Notes under the pieces: model-generated
Database searches by the model: none
The model's input: the letters and a program-made list of their open reading frames with translations, nothing else
What the model was told of the DNA's origin: nothing
Assembly (NCBI RefSeq): GCF_004010195.1
Contig: NC_057753.1
Coordinates: 5,791,488-5,855,487, forward strand
Length of the DNA stretch: 64,000 bases
Direction: 5' to 3'
DNA from: Chiloscyllium plagiosum
Lineage: Eukaryota
Shown here: positions 1 through 61,294 of the stretch, piece by piece
Layout: each line of letters begins with the position of its first letter
Numbering within the stretch: position 1 is the stretch's first letter
Translations under genes and position numbers: made by a program

Positions 1-1150
1 AAGAGTCATACCAAGCGAGATGGTGGAGAAGAGCATCTCGATCCGTTCAAAAGGAAATGGGGAGGAGAGAAGCTCAGAATTCTCCTTCTAGGGTGCTAAG
101 AAGATTAACAAGCCTAGAGACCTGTGGATGGCATCAGAGCGAGGACATGCCTTTCAAATTTGATCTTTTTTTGAGGGTATGTCCAGGTGTGTACACGAAG
201 GTAGTGGAATTGATGTGCTTTATATGGATTACATCAAAGCTTTTGACAATGTCCCACATCGTTAACTTATCAAGAAGGCCAATGCACATGGGATACAAGT
301 CAATTTGATCAAGTGGTTCAAAATTGGCTCATATGCAGGAGATTAGTCGAGAAGGTTGGGTCACACGATTTCCAAAGAGTGCTAGCTGATTGGATTCAAA
401 CTTTCCTCGATTGTAGGACTCAGAGCGTGATGGTTGAGGATTGTTTCTTGGACTGGAGGCCTGTGACTATTGTTGTGTCAAAGGGGTAGGTGCTGAGATC
501 TTTGAATTCGTTATTTACATAAATGATCTGGATGTGAATGTACAAGACATGGTCAGTAAGTTTACAGATGATACAAAATGAGGATGCATTGTTGATAATG
601 AGGAAGGCTATTAAAAATTAGAGGACCTTGGTCAGATGGGGAAGTGGGCTGAGGATTGGCAAACGGAATTCAGAACAGAGAAATGTGATGTGCTGCACTT
701 TGGAAAGTCAGACCAAGTTAGAACTAGTACAGAAAATGGTAAGTTCCTGAGGAGTAAGAGAAAGTGAGGGCTGAAGGTGCAGGAGGTCAGAGTCAAAAGG
801 CGTGGTGCTTGAATAGCACAGCTAGTCAGGCAGCATCTGAGGAGCAGGAGAGTCAACGTTTTGAGAATAAGCATTCCTGATGAAGAGCTGATGTTCGAAA
901 CGTCGACTGTCCTGCTCCTCGGATGCTGCCTGACCGGCTGTGCTTTTCCAGCGCCATAGTTCCTGAGGAGTGTTGTCGAACTGAGGAGAACATGTACATT
1001 GTTCGGAGAAAACGGCTTCACGGGAAACAAAGCGGTGAAAAGGGATTGAGCGTGCTGGCCTTCATCGTTCAAGGCGTTGAGTAAAGGAAATGGAACATTG
1101 TGTTACAGTTGTCTCAGTTATTTGTGAGGTGGTACTTAGAGTATGTTATC
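1..1150 (+). mobile_element. Old degraded CR1-type LINE fragments (RT region) in the unit 1 intron
   Basis: CR1 ORF2-like DNA (ggattcaaa..., tttacagatgatacaaaa, gatgtgctgcactttgga); paralogous to ~16450-17700. Confidence 0.75.
756..957 (+). mobile_element. Penelope-derived palindromic short element with minimal hammerhead core (877-904)
   Basis: 14-bp TSD agttcctgaggagt (742-755 / 958-971); inverted arms; CTGATGA-a-GAGC-tgat-GTTC-GAAA-CGTC. Confidence 0.75.
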
Positions 1151-1457
1151 CATGTTATACAAAAGACATTGTTAGACCTAAATATGTTACAAGAATGTAC
1201 ACTCTTAATTCAGAGAAAATGAAATCATCAAATTGAATGAATTATAGATGCGTTAAGACATTGAAAGCATTTTAAAAAACATTCCAAACACAAACACATC
1301 AGCCACATGAAGTAAATCTACTCACGAAGTGGGATAATACATCACATGAAACAGGGCAAAGGGTAAAGACTCTTTGTAGATGGATGACTGTTAAAGTGGG
1401 AGAGTAGATACAGCTAACCAATGATTCCCGCAGCGAGTAACTAACTACAATAATTAC

Positions 1458-1527
1458 CTGGAAGGCCAATAGCTGCAAGGACGGGGTAGTAAATGGTGAA
1501 GACCAGCCCACTTGGCATTCCATGCAT
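1458..1527 (-). CDS. GPR139-like: GPR139-like GPCR unit 1, coding exon 1; exon 2 lies beyond the left edge of the window
   Basis: Identical 70-nt exon to 18009-18078, with ATG and G|GTAATT donor. Confidence 0.85.
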
Positions 1528-1578
1528 TTCTAAGCGAAGGTCTGACCATATCCAACACAATATTGAAAACCTGGTAAA

Positions 1579-1640
1579 TTTATACAAGGTTTCAGGCTCC
1601 AGGGAGCTAATTAAACTGTTTTGTTTCTACAGAAGCCAAT
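1579..1640 (-). promoter_or_regulatory. Putative proximal promoter of unit 1: TATAAA (1584-1579), O/E-like CTCCAGGGA (1597-1605), homeodomain TAATTA (1608-1613), CCAAT (1636-1640)
   Basis: Motifs read directly; spacing to the ATG is conserved in paralogs. Function is inferred. Confidence 0.55.
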
Positions 1641-2699
1641 TTACTGTAAGGAAAGAGGTGGCTCAGCTTAGATATAATATAATTTTATCTTTTTTTATAG
1701 AATCCGAGAAGTTACTTAAAAAATGTACGGCATAATCCAGCTTGTACTTCTTCTCTTTGGAAAAAGAAACTAGCTGCTTCGATACAAGTCCCAGACCAAA
1801 TCAATCAGATTAAAGATTGACTTCTTGAAAAATGCAAGCAAGTTCAAGTAGACTGCTCTCAGAGAGTGTTTCTCACTTTTTGTGAGAATAATTTAGGCAC
1901 TTAGAGAAGCACTGAGGGTGACAAGGGCGCAGAATGCATTCTGGCTGGGGATTTCAGTGTTTGACATAAAGAGTGGCTCAGCAGCAGCATTGGGTTGGGT
2001 CCGAATGTCTATGAAACCAAGACTAGTTTGTGGCTGGTGGGGAGTGAACCAATCACAGTGAAATACATATTCGACCTCATCCTTGCCAGCTGCATTTTTC
2101 ATGACAGCATCAATAAGAGTGACCACCTCCGAATCCTTGAGAAGGCAAGGTAGTGCCTTCACATTGAGAATGCTTTCCATGGTGTTGTGCAATACCTTCA
2201 CCGGACGAAATGGGACAAGATTTGAACAGATTCAGCAACTCAATTCTGGGCACCAGGAGTCGCTGCGAGCATTAATACTTCAGAATGGCACTCCAGCACA
2301 ATCATCATCACACGTCATGTACCCCAATCAATCATCGCAATTAAGTCCAAATCAATGGAGAGGGCAGGAGGGCATTCCAGGAACAGCGCCAAAAATATAT
2401 GACAATGAGGTGTCTCCTTGGTTAAACTACCAAATAGGACATGTTGGTCAACATGGACCAGTTTGGGACAAAGGGCCTTTTCCTGTGCTGTGACTCTATA
2501 AGTACATGATCAGTTGTACATGAAAGCAGCATTAGCAGCAAGTGATAGTCAGAGCGAAACAAGCCGACACCCAATAATCTAAACTCTGCCATTTCATTCA
2601 CCTCTGGAGGAATGGAGGCAGTGTTGTGTCCTTACTTATAAGTAGCATCAACGTGGGATGACAAGGACGGATTGTTGGTGATCACCACTTCTCAGAACT

Positions 2700-3780
2700 C
2701 GACCGTGTCCACCCCAGCACTATTGATGTATATAGCGCCTTTCCCCCCAAAGGCTTTCATCTTGCAGACATTGAGGGACCAATTGGTATTTTTACACCAA
2801 ATAAGTACTCTGTATCTTACCTGTATTCTTTCTCGTCTTTGCTGAGTTTTTTCTTATAATGGTGCTATCATCAGCTATCATGTAGATGGGGCTTGAAGAG
2901 AATGTGCTCGCACAGTCATTAGTATAGAGGCAGCGTAGCAAATGGATGAGCTCGCAGCCTTGTAGAGCAGTGATGTTGAAGATTATTGTTCAGGATGTGT
3001 AGGTGCCCATTCCCACGGATTGCTGTCTGTGGTCAGGAAGTCAAGGGTCCAGTTTTAGAGGGCGGAATAGAGGTCTCAAAGTCTGGAGATTAGTTTCGTT
3101 GGAATTATGCCATTGACGGTGGACATTTAAGTCAATAGGTGGGAGCCTGAGTTAGTTACCCTTTCAGCAGTCACTGGGAATACTGAAGAAGGTTTCTGTG
3201 GCACTGGGATGATGGCGATGTTCTTGAAGCAGGTGGAGGCTTCAATTCCTAATAAGGAGAGTTTAGTAATGTCAGCAAATATGCCCTTCAGCTGGTATGC
3301 ACAGGATCTGAATGCATGGCCAGAGACTCCACCGGAGCCCATCGCTTTAGTTGGGTTCACTCTCAAAAAAAGCCTCTCTGTGTCTGCTGCGGGAATTGGT
3401 GGAAGAGGCATGTCGAAGTCTGTGGGGGGAGGGAACATCATTTGAATGACCTACTGAGCATAAAATGCGTTTGGCGCATGAGGCAGGGATGTGTTTTTGT
3501 CTGATATTCTGTTCCATTCTGCTCTGTAGCTCATTTCGTCACACACGCCTCCCCACAGATGGTAGGAGTCCATGCAGTTAGTTTGGGTCACTAATGTAGT
3601 CCGGTATTGCCACTTGGCATTTCTAATGGCCTGACAGAGGGCATATCTGGATTTCCTATGAAAGGTCAGGATCATCACATTTGAACACCTCACAACCAGA
3701 CTTCAGGAGGGGAGGGATCTCCCAGTTCATCCATTGTGTCCACTTGAGCAACATACAGGTTAACGTCTTTGGCACTCAAC
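2700..3780 (-). mobile_element. Rex1/Babar-like LINE RT fragment
   Basis: Peptides RKSRYALCQAIRNAK and RSCAYQLKGIFADI..LSL...TCFKNIAIIPVPQK are typical of Rex1-clade RT; disrupted. Confidence 0.75.
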
Positions 3781-8553: not shown

Positions 8554-9464
8554 TCAGATTTTGAACGATTGATTCAATAGTCTCAGCGGATATTTCAGCC
8601 CATTCCTTAACTCGACTCTGATTTTCCTTTGGGTCCCAGCATAAATGAATGGATTGATACAGGAAGTCAAGAAGACAAGCATGAATCCGGTTTCTTCAAG
8701 AAGGAATGATTCTTCACTTAAATCGGATCCTGAGAAGTAAGCAACCTTCGCAACTCGGACATAGATAATCGTTATTACAAATAACAAATAGAACAGGATA
8801 AAAGTGCCGGAGATGGTGAAAAGTAAAACAATTGATTTTCTTCGCTTTTCCATTTCGGGATCACTATGATTCATCCTGTTGTTGTGGCCCCGCAGTCTCC
8901 TGCGGGCTCTGTTAGCCAATACAATGTGTCTGACGGTCAGAATATTCAGCAGTAAAATCAGAATAAAGGGGAGACAAGGGTTTACAATGGGCCGCATCCA
9001 GTCATAAACAGTCCAAGCTGGTGAAGTGTAAAATATTAATCTTACACTGCAAAACCAAGGTATGCTGTTAACTATGTACATGGGTTCGTATACAAAATAT
9101 GCAAAGGCATTTTTTAAACAGGTCAGTGCAGATACAATTCTGATCACACGCACTGCCACCTTCTCTGTGCAATATTTTGTTTTTAGATTCTGGCAACAAA
9201 TAGCCACAAATCTATCAAAGGTGAAAGCCACTGTGAACCAGGCAGAGCTATCAATAGCTGCATAATTAAAGGCCAAGCGAAGGCTGCATACTGGGGTGAT
9301 AAACAGGAAGCTGTATGGGAAGTATATCCCAGCAATCCGGTTTAATATTACAGCAGTGAATATGAGCATAAGATCCGTTATTGCCATGGACACCAGGTAG
9401 TACGTAATACATGGAGAGAGACCGCATCTCCTTTGGCACAGGATGACAATCACTGCCAGATTAG
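8554..9464 (-). CDS. GPR139-like: GPR139/GPR142-like class A GPCR, unit 2, coding exon 2 (TM1 C-terminal half to stop); spliced product 326 aa, apparently intact
   Basis: Open frame with hydrophobic TM segments and motifs PANLAVIVIL, MAITDL, TFDRFVAIC, NPCLPF and SCINPFIY. Acceptor ...ctattccAG at 9466-9465 is phase 1 and matches exon 1 at 18078-18009 (70+911=981 nt). Confidence 0.93.
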
Positions 9465-15689: not shown

Positions 15690-17700
15690 TGGCTGGTTGG
15701 CTTTTACTGTAATTCTCAAGGAATCACAGAGAAACAGATGAAATAAATTCATGAAAGTCTGAGATTGTAACTATCCTAACGACGTGGTTGAGGGACGGGC
15801 AGGGTTGATAACCTAACATTCCAGGATATTGAATCTCCAGGCGACATACAAGAAAGTAAAAGAGGAGGAGGTTTTGCAGTACTATTTAAGTAGTCAATTC
15901 CTGCAATAGCGAGAGATGATATCTTGCAGAGTGCATTGTGGATTTCTGGATACAGCATAGGAATTAAAAAGGAAGTAAAAAGAGTCATCTGCATTGTGAC
16001 CTGTTTATTATAGACTTCCAGTTTGTCAGCAGGAAACCGAGGAGCCCAATGCACGGAGGTGTGTAAAAATAAAACCAAAAGGGGCACTGATTTCATCGTT
16101 TCCATCGTTAACTGCTGTAGACACAGTGTTAAGGAATTGGATGGAGTGGATTTCTTGACATGTGTCGTCAAGAAGTTTCAGAGCAATCTGCACAGAGTGC
16201 AAAATGGACAAAGTTGGTTTGGAACCTTTTCTGGGGAATGAAGCCGGGCAGCTAATGCAGGTGGTAATGTGGGAGTGGTGGGTGCTCGCATTTTCATGAC
16301 AGCGATCGGAGCATGGTAAAAATTAAGCTTCTTCAGGACAAAAACAGACAGTTAGGTTTTAAAAACGGAAGTTTTGGAATGGGAGGGAAAAGCGCTTAGT
16401 TAAATAAGGAAGGGTCTGTCCAAGCTAGACGGAGGAGAAAAACATTTGGACGGTTCAAAAGGAAATGGGTAGGATAGAAGCCCAACATTCTCGTTCTACG
16501 GTGGTAACAAGACTAACAAGCCAGGAGACCTGTGAATGAACTGTGGGTGCTTCCATCATCAGAGAGGTCATGCCTTTCAAATTTTATAGATTTTTTGTGG
16601 ATATGACCAGGTGTGTACATGAGGATAGTGCAGTGAATACATTTGATATGGAGTATAACAAAGCTTTCGACAATTTCCACATTGATGACTTACCAAAAAA
16701 GCCTAAGCACATGGGATACAAGGGAATTTGATCAAGTGGATTCAAAATTGGTTCATTTCCAGGAGACTAGTCCAGAAGGTTAGATCACATGCAATCCAAG
16801 GAGAGAGAGATGATTGGATTCAAAGTTGGCTCGATAGTAGGGCGCAGCGAGAATGGTTGTGGACTTCAGGCCTGTGACTAATGTTGTGTAAAAGGGGTGG
16901 GTGCTGAGCTCTTTGATATTTGTTATTTCCATAAATGATATCTATCTAATGCAGTAGGCATGATCAGTAAGATTGCAGATAAAACAAAATTAGGAGGTAT
17001 TGTTGATAGCGAGGAAGGTCATTAAATTTTACAGACGGATCTTGGTCAGATGGGGAAGTGGGAAGGCGATTAGCAAATGGAATTTAGTACAGAGAAATGT
17101 GAGGTGTTGCACTCTGGAAAGTCAAACCACGGCAGAACTTGTACAGAAACCGGTCAGTTCCTGAGTCGAAGGAGAAAGTGAGTACTGCAGATGCTGCAGA
17201 TCCGAATCAAAAGGTGTGGTACTTGAATAGCACAGCTGGTCAGGCAGCATCCGAGGAGCAGGAGAGTCAACGTTTTGAGAATATGCATTCCTGATGACGA
17301 GCTGATGCTCGAAACGTCGACTGTCCTGCACCTCGGATGCTGCCTGACTGGCTGTGCTTTTCCTGTACTACAGACCCTGCCGAGTGTTGTCGAACTGAGG
17401 AGTACATGTACATTGTTCGGAGAAAACGGCTTCAAAGGAAACAGAGTGGTGAAAAAGGATTTAACCTGCTGGCCTTCATCAGTCAAGGCTGTGCTTTCCC
17501 AGTACTACAGACCCTGACGAGTGTTGTCGAACTGAGGAGTACATGTACATTGTTCGGAGAAAACGGCTTCAAAGGAAACAGAGTGGTGAAAAAGGATTTA
17601 ACCTGCTGGCCTTCATCAGTCAAGGCAATGAGTAAAGGAAATGGAACATTATGGTACAGTTGTCTCAGTCATTTGTGAGGTGGTACTGAGAGTATGTTAT
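15690..17700 (+). mobile_element. Old degraded CR1 LINE in the unit 2 intron, containing a hammerhead-bearing hairpin element (~17170-17365)
   Basis: Homologous to 22930-25480 and 1-1150; CTGATGA-c-GAGC-tgat-GCTC-GAAA-CGTC at 17291-17318. Confidence 0.75.
17350..17623 (+). repeat. 137-bp direct tandem duplication (2 units)
   Basis: 17350-17486 repeated at 17487-17623 with few mismatches; ggc microhomology at the junctions. Confidence 0.9.
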
Positions 17701-18008
17701 CCATGTTATACAAAAGACATTGTTAGACCTAAATATGTTACAAGAATGTACACTCTTAATTCAGAGAAAATGAAATCATCAAATTGAATGAATTATAGAT
17801 GCGTTAAGACATTGAAGGTATTTTAAAAAACATTCCAAACACAAACACATCAGCCAAATGAAGTAAATCTACTCACGAAGTGGGATAATACATCACATGG
17901 AACAGGACAAAGGGTAAAGACTCTTAGAAAATGGATGACTGTTAAAATGGGAGAATAGATACAGCTAACCAATGATTCCCGCAGCGAGTAACTAACTACA
18001 ATAATTAC

Positions 18009-18078
18009 CTGGAAGGCCAATAGCTGCAAGGACGGGGTAGTAAATGGTGAAGACCAGCCCACTTGGCATTCCATGCAT
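18009..18078 (-). CDS. GPR139-like: GPR139-like GPCR unit 2, coding exon 1 (MHGMPSGLVFTIYYPVLAAIGLP + 1 nt)
   Basis: ATG at 18078, 70 nt, donor G|GTAATT. Joins in frame to 9464 to give YYPVLAAIGLPANLAVIVIL, similar to GPR139 TM1 (YY..LL.LGLPAN). Nearest upstream exon 1. Confidence 0.88.
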
Positions 18079-18129
18079 TTCTAAGCGAAGGTCTGACCAT
18101 GTCCAACACAATATTGAAAACCTGGTAAA

Positions 18130-18191
18130 TTTATACAAGGTTTCAGGCTCCAGGGAGCTAATTAAACTGTTTTGTTTCTACAGAAGCCAAT
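18130..18191 (-). promoter_or_regulatory. Putative proximal promoter of unit 2 (TATA + O/E-like + TAATTA + CCAAT)
   Basis: Same module as 1579-1640 at offset 16551. Confidence 0.55.
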
Positions 18192-19249
18192 TTACTGTAA
18201 GGAAAGAGGTGGCTCAGCTTAGATATAATATAATTTTATCTTCTTTCATAGAATCCGAGAAGTTGCTTAAAAAATGTACGGCATAATCCAGCTTGTACTT
18301 CTTCTCTTTGGAAAAAGAAACTAGCTGCTTCGATACAAGTCCCAGACCAAATCAATCAGATTAAAGATTGACTTCTTGAAAAATGCAAGCAAGTTCAAGT
18401 AGACTGCTCTCAGAGAGTGTTTCTCACTTTTTGTGAGAATAATTTAGGCACTTAGAGAAGCACTGAGGGTGACAAGGGCGCAGAATGCATTCTGGCTGGG
18501 GATTTCAGTGTTTGACATAAAGAGTGGCTCAGCAGCAGCATTGGGTTGGGTCCGAATGTCTATGAAACCAAGACTAGTTTGTGGCTGGTGGGGAGTGAAC
18601 CAATCACAGTGAAATACATATTCGACCTCATCCCTGCCAGCTGCATTTTTCATGACAGCATCAATAAGAGTGACCACCTCCGAATCCTTGAGAAGGCAAG
18701 GTAGTGCCTTCACATTGAGAATGCTTTCCATGGTGTTGTGCAATACCTTCACCGGACGAAATGGGACAAGATTTGAACAGATTCAGCAACTCAATTCTGG
18801 GCACCAGGAGTCGCTGCGAGCATTAATACTTCAGAATGGCACTCCAGCACAATCATCATCACACGTCATGTACCCCAATCAATCATCGCAATTAAGTCCA
18901 AATCAATGGAGAGGGCAGGAGGGCATTCCAGGAGCAGCGCCAAAAATATATGACAATGAGGTGTCTCCTTGGTTAAACTACCAAATAGGCCATGTTGGTC
19001 AACATGGACCAGTTTGGGACAAAGGGCCTTTTCCTGTGCTGTGACTCTATAAGTACATGATCAGTTGTACATGAAAGCAGCATTAGCAGCAAGTGATAGT
19101 CAGAGCGAAACAAGCCGACACCCAATAATCTAAACTCTGCCATTTCATTCACCTCTGGAGGAATGGAGGCAGTGTTGTGTCCTTACTTATAAGTAGCATC
19201 AACGTGGGATGACAAGGACGGATTGTTGGTGATCATCACTTCTCAGAAC

Positions 19250-20500
19250 TCGACCGTGTCCACCCCAGCACTATTGAAGTATATAGCGCCTTGCCCCCCA
19301 AAGGCTTTCATCTTGCAGACATTGAGGGACCAATTGGTATTTTTACACCACATAAGCACTCTATGTCTTACCTGTATTCTTTCTCGTCTTTGCTGAGTTC
19401 TTGCTTATAATGGTGCTATCATCAGTTATCATGTCGATGGGGCTTGAAGAGAATGTGCTCACACAGTCATTAGTATAGAGGCAGCGTAGCAAAGGGATGA
19501 GCTCGCAGCCTTGTGGAGTAGTGATGTTGAAGACTATTGTTCAGGATGTGTAGGTGCCCATTCCCACTGATTGCTGTCTGTGGTCAGGAAGTCAAGGGTC
19601 CAGTTTTAGAGGGCGGAATAGAGGTCTCAAAGCCTGGAGATTAGTTTCGTTCGAATTATGCGATTGACGGTGGACATTTAAGTCAATAGGTGGGAGCCTG
19701 AGTTAGTTACCATTTTTATTCAGGAATGAGTGCAGTTCCAGGTAGATGGCATCTGTCAGGTGGATCTGTTATCATGGTAGGTGACTTGCAAGGGATCAAT
19801 GTAGGCTGGGAGGCTAGGGTTGATGTAAGCCTTGACTAGCCTCTTGTAGCACTTTGTAATAATGGAGGTCAGCGGCACTGGGCTGCAGTCACTGGGAATA
19901 CTGAAGAAGGTTTCTGTGGCACTGGGATAATGGCGATGTTCTTGAAGCAGGTGGAGTCTTCAATTCCTAATAAGGAGAGGTTAGTAATGTCAGCAAATAT
20001 GCCCTACAGCTGGAAAGCACAGGATCTGAATGCATGGCCAGAGACTCCACCTGGGGCCATCGCTTTAGTTGGGTTCACTCTCAAAAACGCATCTCTGTGT
20101 CTGCTGCGGGGACTGGTGGAAGAGGTATGTCGAAGTCTGTGGGGGGAGGGAACATCATTTGAATGACCTACTGAGCATAAAATGCGTTTGGCGCATGAGG
20201 CAGGGATGTGTTTTTGTCTGATATTCTGTTCCATTCTGCTCTGTAGCTCATTTGGTCACACACGCCTCCCCACAGATGGTAGGAGTCCATGCAGTTAGTT
20301 TGGGTCACTAATGTAGTCCGATATTGCCACTTGGCATTTCTAATGGCCTGACAGAGGCCATATCTGGATTTCCTATAAAAGGTCAGGATCATCACATTTG
20401 AACACCTCACAACCAGACTTCAGGAGGGAAGGGATCTCCCAGATCATCCATTGTGTCCACTTGAGCAACATACAGGTTAACGTCTTTGGCACTTAACCTT
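19250..20500 (-). mobile_element. Rex1/Babar-like LINE RT fragment (duplicated copy)
   Basis: Paralog of 2700-3780, retaining ~167 bp that is deleted in the other copy. Confidence 0.75.
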
Positions 20501-21638: not shown

Positions 21639-22138
21639 NNNNNNNNNNNNNNNNNNNNNNNNNNNNNNNNNNNNNNNNNNNNNNNNNNNNNNNNNNNNNN
21701 NNNNNNNNNNNNNNNNNNNNNNNNNNNNNNNNNNNNNNNNNNNNNNNNNNNNNNNNNNNNNNNNNNNNNNNNNNNNNNNNNNNNNNNNNNNNNNNNNNNN
21801 NNNNNNNNNNNNNNNNNNNNNNNNNNNNNNNNNNNNNNNNNNNNNNNNNNNNNNNNNNNNNNNNNNNNNNNNNNNNNNNNNNNNNNNNNNNNNNNNNNNN
21901 NNNNNNNNNNNNNNNNNNNNNNNNNNNNNNNNNNNNNNNNNNNNNNNNNNNNNNNNNNNNNNNNNNNNNNNNNNNNNNNNNNNNNNNNNNNNNNNNNNNN
22001 NNNNNNNNNNNNNNNNNNNNNNNNNNNNNNNNNNNNNNNNNNNNNNNNNNNNNNNNNNNNNNNNNNNNNNNNNNNNNNNNNNNNNNNNNNNNNNNNNNNN
22101 NNNNNNNNNNNNNNNNNNNNNNNNNNNNNNNNNNNNNN
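21639..22138. other. Assembly gap (500 N)
   Basis: Run of N. Confidence 0.99.
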
Positions 22139-22322
22139 AGGCTGCATACTGGGGTGATAAACAGGAAGCTGAATGGGAAATAAATCCCAGCAATCCGGTT
22201 TAATATTACAGCCGTGACTATGAGCATGAGATCCGTTATTGCCATGGACAGCAGGTAATAGGTAATACATGCAGAGAGACCACAGCTTCGTCGACACAGG
22301 ATGACAATCACTGCCAGATTAG
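22139..22322 (-). CDS. GPR139-like: GPR139-like GPCR unit 3, exon 2 (5' part; remainder lost in assembly gap)
   Basis: Acceptor ...gtatttcAG at 22324-22323. Translates ANLAVIVILCRRSCGLSACITYYLLSMAITDLMLIVTAVILNRIAGIYFPFSFLFITPVCS, a close paralog of unit 2, with no stop before the Ns. Confidence 0.88.
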
Positions 22323-26014: not shown

Positions 26015-26084
26015 CTGGAAGGCCAATAGCTGCAAGGACGGGATAGTAAATGGCAAATACCAGCCCTCTTGGTATTCCATGCAT
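26015..26084 (-). CDS. GPR139-like: GPR139-like GPCR unit 3, coding exon 1 (MHGIPRGLVFAIYYPVLAAIGLP + 1 nt)
   Basis: 70 nt, ATG at 26084, donor G|GTAATT, in phase with acceptor at 22322. Confidence 0.88.
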
Positions 26085-26135
26085 TTCTAAGAGAAACTCT
26101 GACCATATCCAATACAACATTGAAAACCTGTCAAA

Positions 26136-26197
26136 TTTATACAAGGTTTCAACCTCCAGGGAGCTAATTAAACTGTTTTGTTTCTACAGTAACCAAT
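26136..26197 (-). promoter_or_regulatory. Putative proximal promoter of unit 3 (TATA + O/E-like + TAATTA + CCAAT)
   Basis: tttata 26136-26141, ctccaggga 26154-26162, taatta 26165-26170; same distances from the ATG as units 1 and 2. Confidence 0.55.
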
Positions 26198-29774: not shown

Positions 29775-30380
29775 AAGCTGCAACTTTAACCAATAGGTGA
29801 TATGGATATTTCACCTTATTCTTTAACTCAGATCTGAGTTTGCCTGTACAAATGAATGATTGATGCAAACACTCAATAATTGAAGTATATATCCACTTTG
29901 TTGGAGGACAAGTGTGGAATTCCTGAAATCAAAAACAGTAGAATAAAAGACATTGGCAATTTACAATATAAGTAATCTGTATAGGCTGTAACAAAGGTAA
30001 CAGGGTGAATCTTCCCGAGATGAGGAAGAGAAAAACAATAGAATTAACCTGTTTCTTCATTTCTGGGTCCCTCTGGTTCTCCAAGTTGGTTTGTGCCCGG
30101 AGTCTTTTCTGGGCTATATTGGCCACTAGAATGTGTCTGACAATCAGGACATTGAACAGTAAAATCAGAATGAAAGGTAGAAGAGGGGTTAAAATAGACC
30201 AAATTCAGGATCTAGACTAGAGTGGTGCTGGAACAGCACAGCAGGTCAGGCAGCATCTGAGGAGCAGGAGGTATGTACAGTCATATATACAGTCCATGCA
30301 GGTAATGTGTAATATGTTTGTGCATTGACAAATATTGTTGATTACATACATTGGTTCACACAAAAAATGCATATGTATCA
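29775..30380 (-). pseudogene. GPR139-like unit 4, degraded exon 2 remnant (ECL2 to C-terminus)
   Basis: Broken-frame homology to unit 2: EPMYVINN, PAWTVY, KRLRAQTNLENQRDPEMKK, SIVFLFLISG, KLRSELKNKVKYPYHLL. Has frameshifts and a repeat fragment inserted at about 30203-30270. The TM1-TM4 part was not found. Confidence 0.82.
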
Positions 30381-37719: not shown

Positions 37720-38295
37720 AGGCTAGTTTTCTTGTAACCCTCCCAATCATTTTATAACAAAGAACCCCAGTCCAGTGTTTGTAAAGTACCGCCAGCCCAC
37801 CGATAACATAAACCCTCAGCCCTGTGTTTATATAGCATCCATCCCAGTTTTCACACAACCGCCCGACCTAGTGTCTACTCAACCACCCTGTCTGGTGTTA
37901 ATATAAGCCGCCCAGTGCCGTGATTCTACAATACCTGCCAGTGTAATTTTCTAACACTCCCAGCAACAGTGTTTATATAATGCTGCCACAGTCATTTTAT
38001 AACAACCTCCCCCAGCAGCATTGATATAACATTGCTCCAGTAATTTTATAACTGCTCCAAATGTCAGTGTTTATGATATTCACATCCCCAAGTAATTTTA
38101 TAACAAATACCAAAACCAGTATTTACATAAAACCCGAAATAATGTTATAACAATCCTACCAGTCCACTGTGTATATAACATAAACCCCCAGTAATTTCAT
38201 TACAACCCTCCCAAAACAGTCGATATATAACACAGCCCCCAGTAATTTTACAATGAACAATTCCAGTCCAGTGTTTATATAAACACTCGCCAGAA
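37720..38295. repeat. Degenerate satellite array, left part
   Basis: Recurrent ccagtgtttatataac / cagtaattttataac subunits. Confidence 0.8.
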
Positions 38296-40544: not shown

Positions 40545-41219
40545 AACCAGCGCATTATTGTAAAACACACAACCCCCATAGTAATTTTATAACAGCCTCC
40601 CAGCCCAGTGTTTATATAACACACACCCCCACAGTAATTTTATAACAGCCTCCTAGCCCAGTGTTTATATAACACCACTCCCACAGTGATTTTATAACAG
40701 CCTCCTAGCCCAGTGTTTATATAACACCACTCCCACAGTGATTTTATAACAGCTCCCCCAGCCCAGTGTTGATGTCACACACACCCCCACAGTAATTTTA
40801 TACCAGCCCACCAGCCCAGTGTTAATATAACATACACACACAGTAATGTTATAACTTGCAACCCAACCCAGTGTTTATATAACACACAACCCCACAGTAA
40901 TTTTATAACAGCTACCCCAGCCCAGTGTTTATACAACACACATCCCAATCGTAATTGTATGACAGCCCCCCAACCTAGTGTTCATATAAAATACACACAC
41001 ACAGTAATTTTGTAACAGCACCCAGGCCAGTGTTTATGTAACACACATTCCCACTGTAATTTTATAACAGCACCCCCAGCCCAGTGTTTATGTAACACAC
41101 ATTCCCACTGTAATTTTATACCACACACCCCATTCCAGTGTTTATATAACACACACACCCCAGCCCAGTGTTTATATAACACACACCCATCCCAGTGTTT
41201 ATATAACACACACCACCCC
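40545..41219. repeat. ~60-bp satellite array (two related ~30-bp subunits), running into a gap
   Basis: (cccagtgtttatataacacacacccccacagtaattttataacagcctc...)n, about 11 units. Confidence 0.92.
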
Positions 41220-42416: not shown

Positions 42417-42486
42417 CTGAAACACCAACAATTGCAATAACTGGATAGTAAATGGCAAACACCAGACCTGTTGGCAATCCGTGCAT
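42417..42486 (-). pseudogene. GPR139-like exon 1 (MHGLPTGLVFAIYYPVIAIVGVS + 1 nt), probably of pseudogenised unit 4
   Basis: 70 nt, ATG at 42486, donor G|GTAAAA. The exon itself is intact. The nearest visible downstream exon 2 is the degraded one at ~29.8-30.4 kb, but gaps intervene. Confidence 0.75.
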
Positions 42487-42532: not shown

Positions 42533-42590
42533 CCATAAATATACTTACCGCCAGGCTCCAGGGATTTCTTTCAGATTAATGAGATTATGT
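42533..42590 (-). promoter_or_regulatory. Putative proximal promoter of unit 4 (TATA-like + O/E-like + TAATGA)
   Basis: caggctccaggga at 42552-42564 begins 66 nt from the ATG as in the other copies, although the flanks are strongly diverged. taatgag at 42577-42583. Confidence 0.5.
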
Positions 42591-59800: not shown

Positions 59801-60196
59801 GCTAACCCAGGTTATTGGTGGAACCAGGATGATGTTCACAGAAGAACAATGGGCATGCATCATGTTTTCTGACTTTGCGAGCTTTGTGAACAAACCACAG
59901 CAGCACAGCTTGTGCCTGCATGACCGTTCACTTACTGATTACAAACAAAAAGCAACTGGAGGGTTTTGAATATCATCAGGCCTGAACCTATACAGTTGCA
60001 AATTTATTCGCTGCTGTTTCTCTTTGCAAAATGGCGTTGTAAATTAATGAATGAAGCATGCGTACATATTTCACAAATGTTCAAACACGAATGAACTTTC
60101 AGTTTGAGGGCATGGGTGACAAGACATGTAGAAGGCATGTGTGGGCGACATGCAACATCCATGTTTCATTTAATATTCTCAATGGGTTGGAGATTT

Positions 60197-61103
60197 TTAC
60201 AACTTAGCAAAAAATCTCAAAGGATATTGCAAACCATTCTTCAACTCATCTCTCAATTTACTCTGTGTTCCAGCATAGATAAAGGGATTGATGCAGAAAT
60301 TCAGAAACTGAAGCATAAACCCCGTTTTTTTCCAGGATAAAGGATGAGGACCCGTAATCAGAACGTGAATAATAAGCAACCTTTGCAATTCTTGAATACA
60401 GTACTGTTATAAAAAGTACTGAATACAGCAAGGTAAAATTATGTGAAATGCCAAAAGGTAAGGTGATGGATTTTTTTTCCGCTTCTCCATCTCTGGGTCA
60501 CTCTGATTCTCTGCATTAGTCTGAGTCCAGAGTCTTTTACGGGCTCTGTTGGCTGCCAGAATAAGTCTTACAATCAGAACGTTGCACAGTGCTTTCAGAA
60601 TGAATGGGAGAGAGGGAGTTAAAATAGACCGCCTCAAATCATACGCAATCCGTGTTGTTGTTGTACTAAATAGTTGTTCAACAACGCAGAAACACGGTAC
60701 TTTATCAATTATATTGAAAGGTTCAAATATAAAATACAAGAACACATTTCTTTTAGACAGTTCAGTTTGCAAACACTCCCGATAGCCCACGTTGCAATCT
60801 TCTCCGTACAGTATCTATTTTTCAGCTTCTGGGAACAATTGGCCACAAATCAATCAAACGTGAAAGCAACTGTTAACCAGGCAGAACTATCTATGAGAGC
60901 ATAAATTAGGACTACACAGAGGCGGCAAATTGGTGTGATGGATAGGAAAGTGAATGGTAGATAAATACCAGAAATTTGATTTATAATGACAGTGACAATG
61001 ATGACTAATAGATCTGCAAGCGCCATGGACACGACGTCATAAATGATACATCCAGACAGACCACATCTTCTTCGGTAAAAGATCACTACCACTGCCAAGT
61101 TTG
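60197..61103 (-). pseudogene. GPR139-like unit 5, full-length but disabled exon 2; exon 1 lies beyond the right edge
   Basis: Acceptor ...tggtacAG at 61105-61104, then ANLAVVVIFYRRRCGLSGC...SSAWLTVAFTFD* (TGA at 60852-60850 in place of the DRF Arg). Further frameshifts follow. Ends CINPFIYAGTQSKLRDELKNGLQYPLRFFAKL*. Confidence 0.9.
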
Positions 61104-61294
61104 CTGTACCAGAAAGAATAAAGCGAGGAAATAGTGAGAAAAATGTCGCAGAGCTGGAGAGCACGAAAATAATTCAAACAACATTCTGCATGAATTCAGT
61201 ACACCTGCGACCTATTTTTGAGTTGGAAAACTGTTTCACACTTGTTTTATGAGTCTCTGTTAACCTTAACACAATCATGACATATTAGAAATTT

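Follow-up and report, generated by a model that had tools for sequence, protein, structure and literature searches.

The closest described relatives of the element reported here come from mouse olfaction. Monahan et al. (2017) reported adjacent Lhx2 and Ebf sites (the composite) in 35 of 63 Greek Islands, an enrichment relative to odorant receptor (OR) promoters; by the same account, a 2-bp insertion in the composite impairs fusion-probe binding, and Greek-Island composites tolerate degenerate Ebf halves that retain the pyrimidine/purine pattern (PMC5608512). A 17-position degenerate pattern has been given for the composite, together with its reported depletion from mouse OR promoters (PMC11643329), and mutating the composite is reported to cripple the J element (PMC7804114). 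In mouse the composite is also described at elements outside the olfactory clusters (PMC5608512, PMC11643329). OR promoters, with their homeodomain, O/E, and TBP motifs, have been reviewed alongside the Greek Islands (PMC12547500). For sharks, the catshark account describes few genes of the OR, TAAR, and V1R families, a dominance of V2Rs, and no ciliated olfactory sensory neurons (OSNs) (PMC10116579), and the top 50 genes given for a catshark brain and olfactory library include no GPCR, V2Rs being absent as well (PMC11979771). Our literature search, with most subscription papers beyond its reach, returned no paper describing the receptor family treated here or its promoter.

The window is the whole 64,000-nucleotide stretch of Chiloscyllium plagiosum DNA that was analyzed. 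Its minus strand contains four copies of exon 1 from a tandem gene family, with ATGs at 1527, 18078, 26084, and 42486 (Table 1). Exon 1 of each unit comprises 70 coding nt (23 codons) with a GT donor. Upstream of units 1 to 3, counted on the minus strand relative to the ATG, lie a homeodomain site TAATTA at -86 to -81, an O/E site TCCCTGGAG at -78 to -70, and TATAAA at -57 to -52. All coordinates in the preliminary description of this DNA were correct, including that of a 13-mer whose start is 66 nt away from the ATG in each of the four units, and the single offset that it gave for TATAAA in units 1 to 3 was confirmed at the position above. Its claim of a module in all four copies held for units 1 to 3 and was too strong for unit 4, in which the O/E site keeps its offset but TAAT is 6 nt farther from it, TATATTTA stands in for TATAAA, and exon 2 is decayed; the unit 4 module has 2 mismatches to the published composite pattern, and its upstream sequence is 43 to 47% alike those of units 1 to 3. 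Positions 936 to 3164 and 17487 to 19715 form a 97% duplicate (units 1 and 2), and in the 120 nt upstream these two units are 99% identical to each other and 90 to 91% identical to unit 3. Because their upstream regions are 90 to 99% alike, units 1 to 3 count as one observation, and the four window copies on their own prove little. A search of the 7.5 kb adjoining the window on its left, which include a gap of 1175 N, did not find exon 2 of unit 1.

Several further features of the window were recorded. In units 1 to 3, an out-of-frame ATG lies 22 nt before the start codon (1547-1549, 18098-18100, and 26104-26106, minus strand) and falls about 5 nt past the predicted transcription start. Much of the intergenic DNA consists of CR1-like LINE fragments. 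The unit 2 intron carries a 137-nt tandem duplication within a SINE-like repeat (17350-17626), and a 26/54-nt tandem array (40564-41219) sits beside an assembly gap; a diverged array related to it lies at a distance of 2.5 kb (about 37817-38286).

Table 1. Positions of promoter and coding features of the receptor family in the window
Feature	Position	Strand	Remarks
Unit 1 homeodomain site TAATTA	1608..1613	-	at -86..-81; family column conservation 0.66 (65 paralogs)
Unit 1 O/E (EBF-type) site	1596..1605	-	2 bases past homeodomain site; half-site conservation 0.76-0.78
Unit 1 17-nt homeodomain-O/E composite	1597-1613	-	0 mismatches to published composite pattern
Unit 1 TATA box	1579..1584	-	21 bp beyond O/E site start
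Unit 1 predicted transcription start	~1551-1557		predicted from textbook TATA spacing
Unit 1 coding exon 1	1458..1527	-	23 codons (70 nt), followed by a GT donor
Unit 2 module (homeodomain + O/E + TATA)	18130..18164	-	
Unit 2 coding exon 1	18009..18078	-	
Unit 2 exon 2	8554..9464	-	spliced to exon 1, encodes an intact class-A 7TM protein of 326 aa
Unit 3 module (homeodomain + O/E + TATA)	26136..26170	-	
Unit 3 coding exon 1	26015..26084	-	
Unit 3 exon 2, 5' part	22139..22322	-	remainder enters assembly gap 21639-22138
Unit 4 altered module	42536..42583	-	TAAT sites 6+ nt farther upstream; O/E 42555-42564
Unit 4 TATA-like TATATTTA	42536-42543	-	replaces TATAAA at -57
Unit 4 coding exon 1	42417..42486	-	
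Decayed exon 2 remnant	29782..30378	-	stops, frame breaks, 5' part absent; probable partner of unit 4 exon 1
Fifth exon 2	60194..61104	-	in-frame stops and frameshift; exon 1 absent from window

Across the family, promoters were drawn from 130 of 150 exon-1 matches and from further loci; 123 were unique, 121 of these had 1 kb of upstream sequence, and removal of pairs more than 70% alike left a non-redundant set of 65. Ten loci without a Y-x-P core were left out. Median pairwise identity over the 200 nt upstream was 0.52, compared with 0.44 for shuffled sequence. EM run without priors recovered TAATTATCTCCCTGGAGCC (TAATTR-NN-TCCCYRGAG) in 60 of the 65 promoters, with a log-likelihood of 524 for proximal sequence versus 57 for shuffled and 157 for far-upstream sequence. 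Column identity over the 65 promoters reached 0.66 in the homeodomain site, 0.78 in TCCC, 0.76 in GAG, and 0.75 in TATA, with 0.37 in the spacer and 0.52 at the middle two positions of the O/E site; for comparison, the region upstream had 0.31, the 5' UTR 0.38, the intron 0.33, and fourfold sites of exon 1 had 0.54, with flanks as a whole at 0.31 to 0.46. The EBF consensus has fixed half sites and a free center, and the shape of the constraint seen here (CCC and G-G half sites fixed, center and spacer free) looks like that of an EBF site. The second O/E half is GAG in most copies, and the palindrome is never perfect.

Homeodomain and O/E sites stood at one spacing in 31 pairs (the next commonest spacing had 5 pairs), and O/E and TATA at 21 bp in 18 of 24 counted pairs. 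An O/E-TATA pair at 19 to 24 bp was present in 20 of the 65 promoters and in 0 of 260 far windows; the strict composite occurred in 23 of 65 proximal regions and in none of the other 50-nt bins to -1000, nor on the opposite strand. TAYAAW at -100 to -51 lay on the sense strand in 33 of 65 promoters and on the antisense strand in 5: the TATA element is conserved, oriented, and fixed in place, as expected of a core promoter. The fixed distance to the ATG that had been claimed earlier holds for the 13-mer of the window and is only rough family-wide, with EM sites at -82 to -86 in 44 of 60 cases, a range of -68 to -109, and positions near -170 in three genes whose exon 1 is longer. The fixed property of the module is its internal spacing. 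Two structural variants were seen: a subfamily (L177 to L179, on C49 and C89511) in which exon 1 is longer, at about 57 codons, and about 170 nt separate the module from the ATG, and a locus (L038/L039, C48:8.534 Mb) with two exon-1 copies whose promoters lie 495 nt apart.

Genome-wide, where small contigs may duplicate others in the counts, the homeodomain + O/E + TATA pattern had 48 matches compared with 12 for its reversed control: 41 lay before a family exon 1 (three of them in the subfamily with a longer exon 1), 2 were cut by a contig end, and 5 were unrelated. The strict 18-mer composite had 18 matches, 17 of them at the family, versus 0 for the reversed control. Both patterns were derived from the family and therefore show confinement, not independent discovery. 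The module is conserved, rigid, under selection, and nearly confined to an expanded shark orphan 7TM family. The sole strict 18-mer that is not beside a family exon 1 (L220, G000:C36:30411679) could be a chance occurrence or an enhancer-type site.

The positional enrichment in paralogs that the preliminary description anticipated was borne out in the main clade and in part beyond it. In a distant clade of 30 loci (L229 to L258), of which one filter left 19 as non-redundant, these 19 promoters showed no enrichment of the composite score as a whole (p = 0.17), yet a degenerate O/E-TATA pair at 21 to 22 bp was found in 6 of 15, compared with 0 of 60 far windows. In this clade the O/E half has often become YCACTNGAG, which makes a poor EBF site. 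A forkhead-like TGTTTGTT lies upstream of the module, at about -200 to -100, in about half of these promoters, and an element of this type has a weak consensus at about -128 to -120 in the main clade. Of three further divergent promoters examined, two had no clear module, and the third (L271, on contig C25, another chromosome) carries both the full composite and TATA, spaced as in the main clade. For two of five divergent genes a search over 6 kb did not find exon 1, five flanks of 1.6 kb likewise contained none, and a second divergent exon-1 query had no genome match. A single-copy, two-exon gene (L265-L266/L259, G000:C26:36.60 Mb) is 64% identical to the coelacanth "probable GPR139", whose orthologue it is, and has relatives in teleosts; within 300 nt of the ATG of this outgroup gene, which may have an upstream exon, there is neither a composite nor an O/E-TATA pair. 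This single-copy lineage is a conserved orphan receptor lineage distinct from the expanded family. In the horn shark, gene model P0106 reads through the promoter, with LIISLE...YK at the exact composite and TATA offsets; it alone fitted among the horn-shark and other protein models that were searched for promoter read-through. At the protein level, and short of proof, it is compatible with conservation of the module in another order.

The 326-aa protein of unit 2 matched only Pfam 7tm_1. It has 2025 relatives in the database, and of the 120 best, 119 bear shark names, mostly "probable GPR139"; the closest are from C. plagiosum (83%) and Rhincodon typus (82%). Matches at 62 to 83% identity spread over seven shark genera, rays, skates, and chimaera have members that are more distant, and relatives at 98 to 194 bits (20 of 150 matches looked up) belong to salamanders, coelacanth, teleosts, and a caecilian. 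Against a 30-sequence family profile, the single-copy salamander, coelacanth, and teleost relatives scored 161 to 194 bits, TRHR 55, human GPR139 47.7, and chemokine receptors about 36. The nearest solved relatives are peptide/amino-acid receptors, namely TRHR, GPR139, and PRLHR (48 to 55 bits for TRHR and GPR139), and the likeness to chemokine receptors and GPR15 is weak. Orthology to GPR139 was rejected: human GPR139 scores under TRHR, its similarity being neither strong nor best, and "probable GPR139" is no more than an automatic label of the shark, ray, and chimaera models. In a sequence tree built without true GPR139, and serving for orientation only, the cartilaginous-fish sequences were grouped with low support (83/53) next to salamander. 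Membership in the ORs was likewise rejected, since 0 of 30 sequences match 7tm_4, OR signature motifs occur in 0 of 120, and an intron splits the coding region.

The exon-1 search of the genome gave at least 150 scored matches of 347 candidates, and the exon-2 search at least 150, all with E < 5e-42, of 5552 candidates; by hand count, 128 of the best 150 exon-2 matches lie in a stop-free frame of 295 or more codons. The family has at least 150 copies, mostly intact, versus about 40 full-length class-C matches in the V2R cluster on C13. Among 120 database members, with pocket positions assigned via conserved motifs, 20 pocket-facing positions were more variable than the other TM positions (1.43 versus 0.68 bits, p = 3e-6). 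A variable pocket is expected of a sensor repertoire, and the family combines it with large size and clustering.

Promoters of V2R (OlfC) genes, which encode class C receptors, share the ingredients of the orphan-family module and differ in grammar. Eight V2R first exons of the same genome had TATA at -51 to -60 in 6 of 8 and mostly an O/E-like site and TAATTR, so these promoters, judged by such positions, are apparently compact too. The composite was absent from all 8 V2R promoters examined, in which about 100 to 150 nt separate O/E from TATA and about 50 nt separate it from the homeodomain site. Within the C13 cluster (L193, L196, L198, L203, L201, and L205), an O/E-like palindrome is conserved at about -150 or -207. 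No RNA run was listed as containing exon 2 of unit 2. Four sequencing runs were aligned, at 85% likeness, to a close paralog of the window genes (L187). Runs X1 and X2 cover introns and flanks, i.e., they behave as DNA. Run X5 (single-cell RNA, tissue not given), of which 2% was read, placed 2188 reads there, 2185 of them partial and mostly on a SINE, with no read at exon 1 or the 3' end; run X6 had no reads.

Set against the published composite pattern, units 1 to 3 match at 17 of 17 positions, in register, L271 likewise has no mismatch, and among the 65 anchored sites 39 deviate at no more than 1 position, mismatches being concentrated at the spacer base (45 of 65 shark sites). The pattern is loose, with 1 exact match per kb in the window; of 65 proximal windows, 18 contain an exact match, versus a background of 5 to 11% (p = 1e-4). 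The preliminary description had likened the module to OR promoters and enhancers alike: the enhancer half of this likeness is the closer one, through the Greek-Island composite, and the promoter half is weakened by the depletion of the composite from mouse OR promoters. We propose that the module is probably an Lhx2/Emx2- and Ebf-driven promoter of an unrecognized shark olfactory receptor family that is larger than V2R. In this mechanism, Lhx2 (or Emx2) and Ebf would co-bind the composite in OSNs, TBP would bind 21 bp (two helical turns) downstream of the O/E site, and transcription would start about 27 nt before the ATG, so that there would be no upstream non-coding exon. Each tandem copy would have taken its own enhancer-grade site along when duplicating, whereby the family could expand yet remain expressible in sensory neurons, and the receptors would detect water-borne ligands. 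By analogy with mouse and with known shark receptors, some observations would count against an olfactory role: the composite is depleted from mouse promoters, the 8 promoters of V2Rs, the family known to be olfactory in sharks, are without it, sharks have no ciliated OSNs, the cell type in which the composite was defined, and no GPCR (nor any V2R) is among the top 50 genes of the catshark library.

Ebf and TAAT-binding factors co-occur in many neurons, and the motif evidence would also serve a real homeodomain and Ebf promoter acting in other sensory or secretory cells (trigeminal or dorsal-root neurons, solitary chemosensory cells, taste buds, ampullae of Lorenzini, or gut endocrine cells), the family then being an analogue of mammalian MRGPRs and not a set of odorant receptors. 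We consider this rather unlikely, although the peptide/amino-acid receptors among the nearest solved relatives and the lack of the composite in V2R promoters fit it. We know of no equivalent composite from other sensory neurons. Ebf genes are reported to act widely in sensory neurons (amphioxus, ascidian, nematode; PMC7776563), and MAS1 and its relatives are reported absent from cartilaginous fishes, which would leave such a niche open (PMC8455134); the register and spacing, however, match an element that was defined in olfactory neurons and in which a 2-bp insertion impairs binding (PMC5608512). The family might also consist of immune receptors, its O/E site being read by Ebf1 in B-lineage cells, and the weak likeness to chemokine receptors and GPR15 would suit this. 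EBF1 is a B-cell factor, and B-cell elements typically carry E-box, Pax5, Runx, or Ets sites, whereas the fixed partner here is a TAATTR homeodomain site, and the chemokine receptors score below TRHR and GPR139. Birth-and-death clusters with variable pockets do suit immune sensing as well, for which the FPRs offer a precedent (PMC12547500), and we regard an immune role as improbable overall.

Two other explanations concern the motif itself. Its conservation could be a by-product of shared descent, of gene conversion, or of splicing signals that belong to an untranslated exon, the true promoter lying far upstream, as might be thought from the recent duplication of units 1 to 3, from an acceptor-like pyrimidine tract and AG at -117 in these units, and from CAG-GTATAA and an AG just ahead of the ATG in many copies (GTAAGT past O/E in unit 4). 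Passive shared descent is largely refuted by the low upstream identity, set against which the motif columns reach 0.76 to 0.78, and sites with identical spacing occur on many contigs. The splice-signal reading was rejected: only 57% of copies retain the G before TATAAA, and 69%/62% retain the AG at -4/-3, whereas the true donor GT is kept in 100%, and the AG at -118/-117 is not the family consensus. We regard a by-product of any of these kinds as quite improbable. Very improbable, in our view, is a functional promoter in which CCC-NN-GAG is bound by a non-Ebf factor, such as a zinc-finger protein, the likeness to mouse being convergence. It would explain why the second half is GAG in most copies without a perfect palindrome, and why the distant clade drifts to a poor EBF site; Greek-Island composites, however, also tolerate degenerate Ebf halves, and over 11 bases the shark O/E half has a single difference from the OMP Olf/Ebf EMSA probe (PMC5608512). 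The identification of the site as O/E, proposed earlier from its consensus, withstood comparison with both the base-by-base constraint and this probe.

An olfactory promoter driven by Lhx2/Emx2 and Ebf accordingly remains our preferred reading of the module. A broader claim, that sharks smell mainly via a hundreds-strong, peptide-receptor-like GPCR family several-fold larger than V2R, with the composite as each gene's promoter, we hold with little more than even confidence. With at least 150 receptors, most of them intact, and a word of olfactory enhancers in its promoters, the family is a concrete candidate for the missing repertoire. If the reading is right, the Lhx2/Ebf composite would date to the jawed-vertebrate ancestor, predating the split between cartilaginous and bony fishes, and would have been captured by an expanding receptor lineage; it would be a natural case of an enhancer motif serving as a core-promoter element, and a per-gene promoter solution to receptor choice in place of the shared enhancer hubs of mammals.

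The likeness to the Greek-Island composite lies in a TAAT-type site followed by a pyrimidine/purine O/E site at short, fixed spacing, in the same order and register, and the stereotyped adjacency that marks the mouse composite is found in the shark element. Its position differs: the mouse composite belongs to about 60 intergenic enhancers, whereas the shark element lies in every gene's proximal promoter, 70 to 86 nt before the ATG, in a single orientation and 21 bp before TATA. Because it is neither intergenic nor off-promoter, the shark element is not a Greek Island and resembles the core motif of one. The spacer base is a purine in the Greek-Island composite and mostly T in the shark, and the Greek-Island setting is one of OR genes and ciliated OSNs, whereas the shark genes are not ORs and belong to a lineage without ciliated OSNs. 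With mammalian OR proximal promoters the module has in common its three classes of motif and their place close to where clustered 7TM genes begin. In OR genes the first exons are usually untranslated and no intron interrupts the coding region; in the shark family, by contrast, exon 1 is coding and the module lies 50 to 90 nt from the ATG. Mammalian OR promoter sites are described as dispersed (PMC5608512, PMC12547500), whereas the shark sites are juxtaposed. On the olfactory reading, the shark family would resemble the TAARs and FPRs, non-OR class-A receptors secondarily recruited to olfaction (PMC12547500), in having come under the regulation of olfactory neurons and multiplied within a single lineage. 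The parent clade of the shark family is a different, peptide-receptor-like one, and its own role in olfaction is a putative one. Adenosine A2c is another receptor family secondarily recruited to olfaction, and the same two differences set the shark family apart from it as from the TAARs and FPRs.
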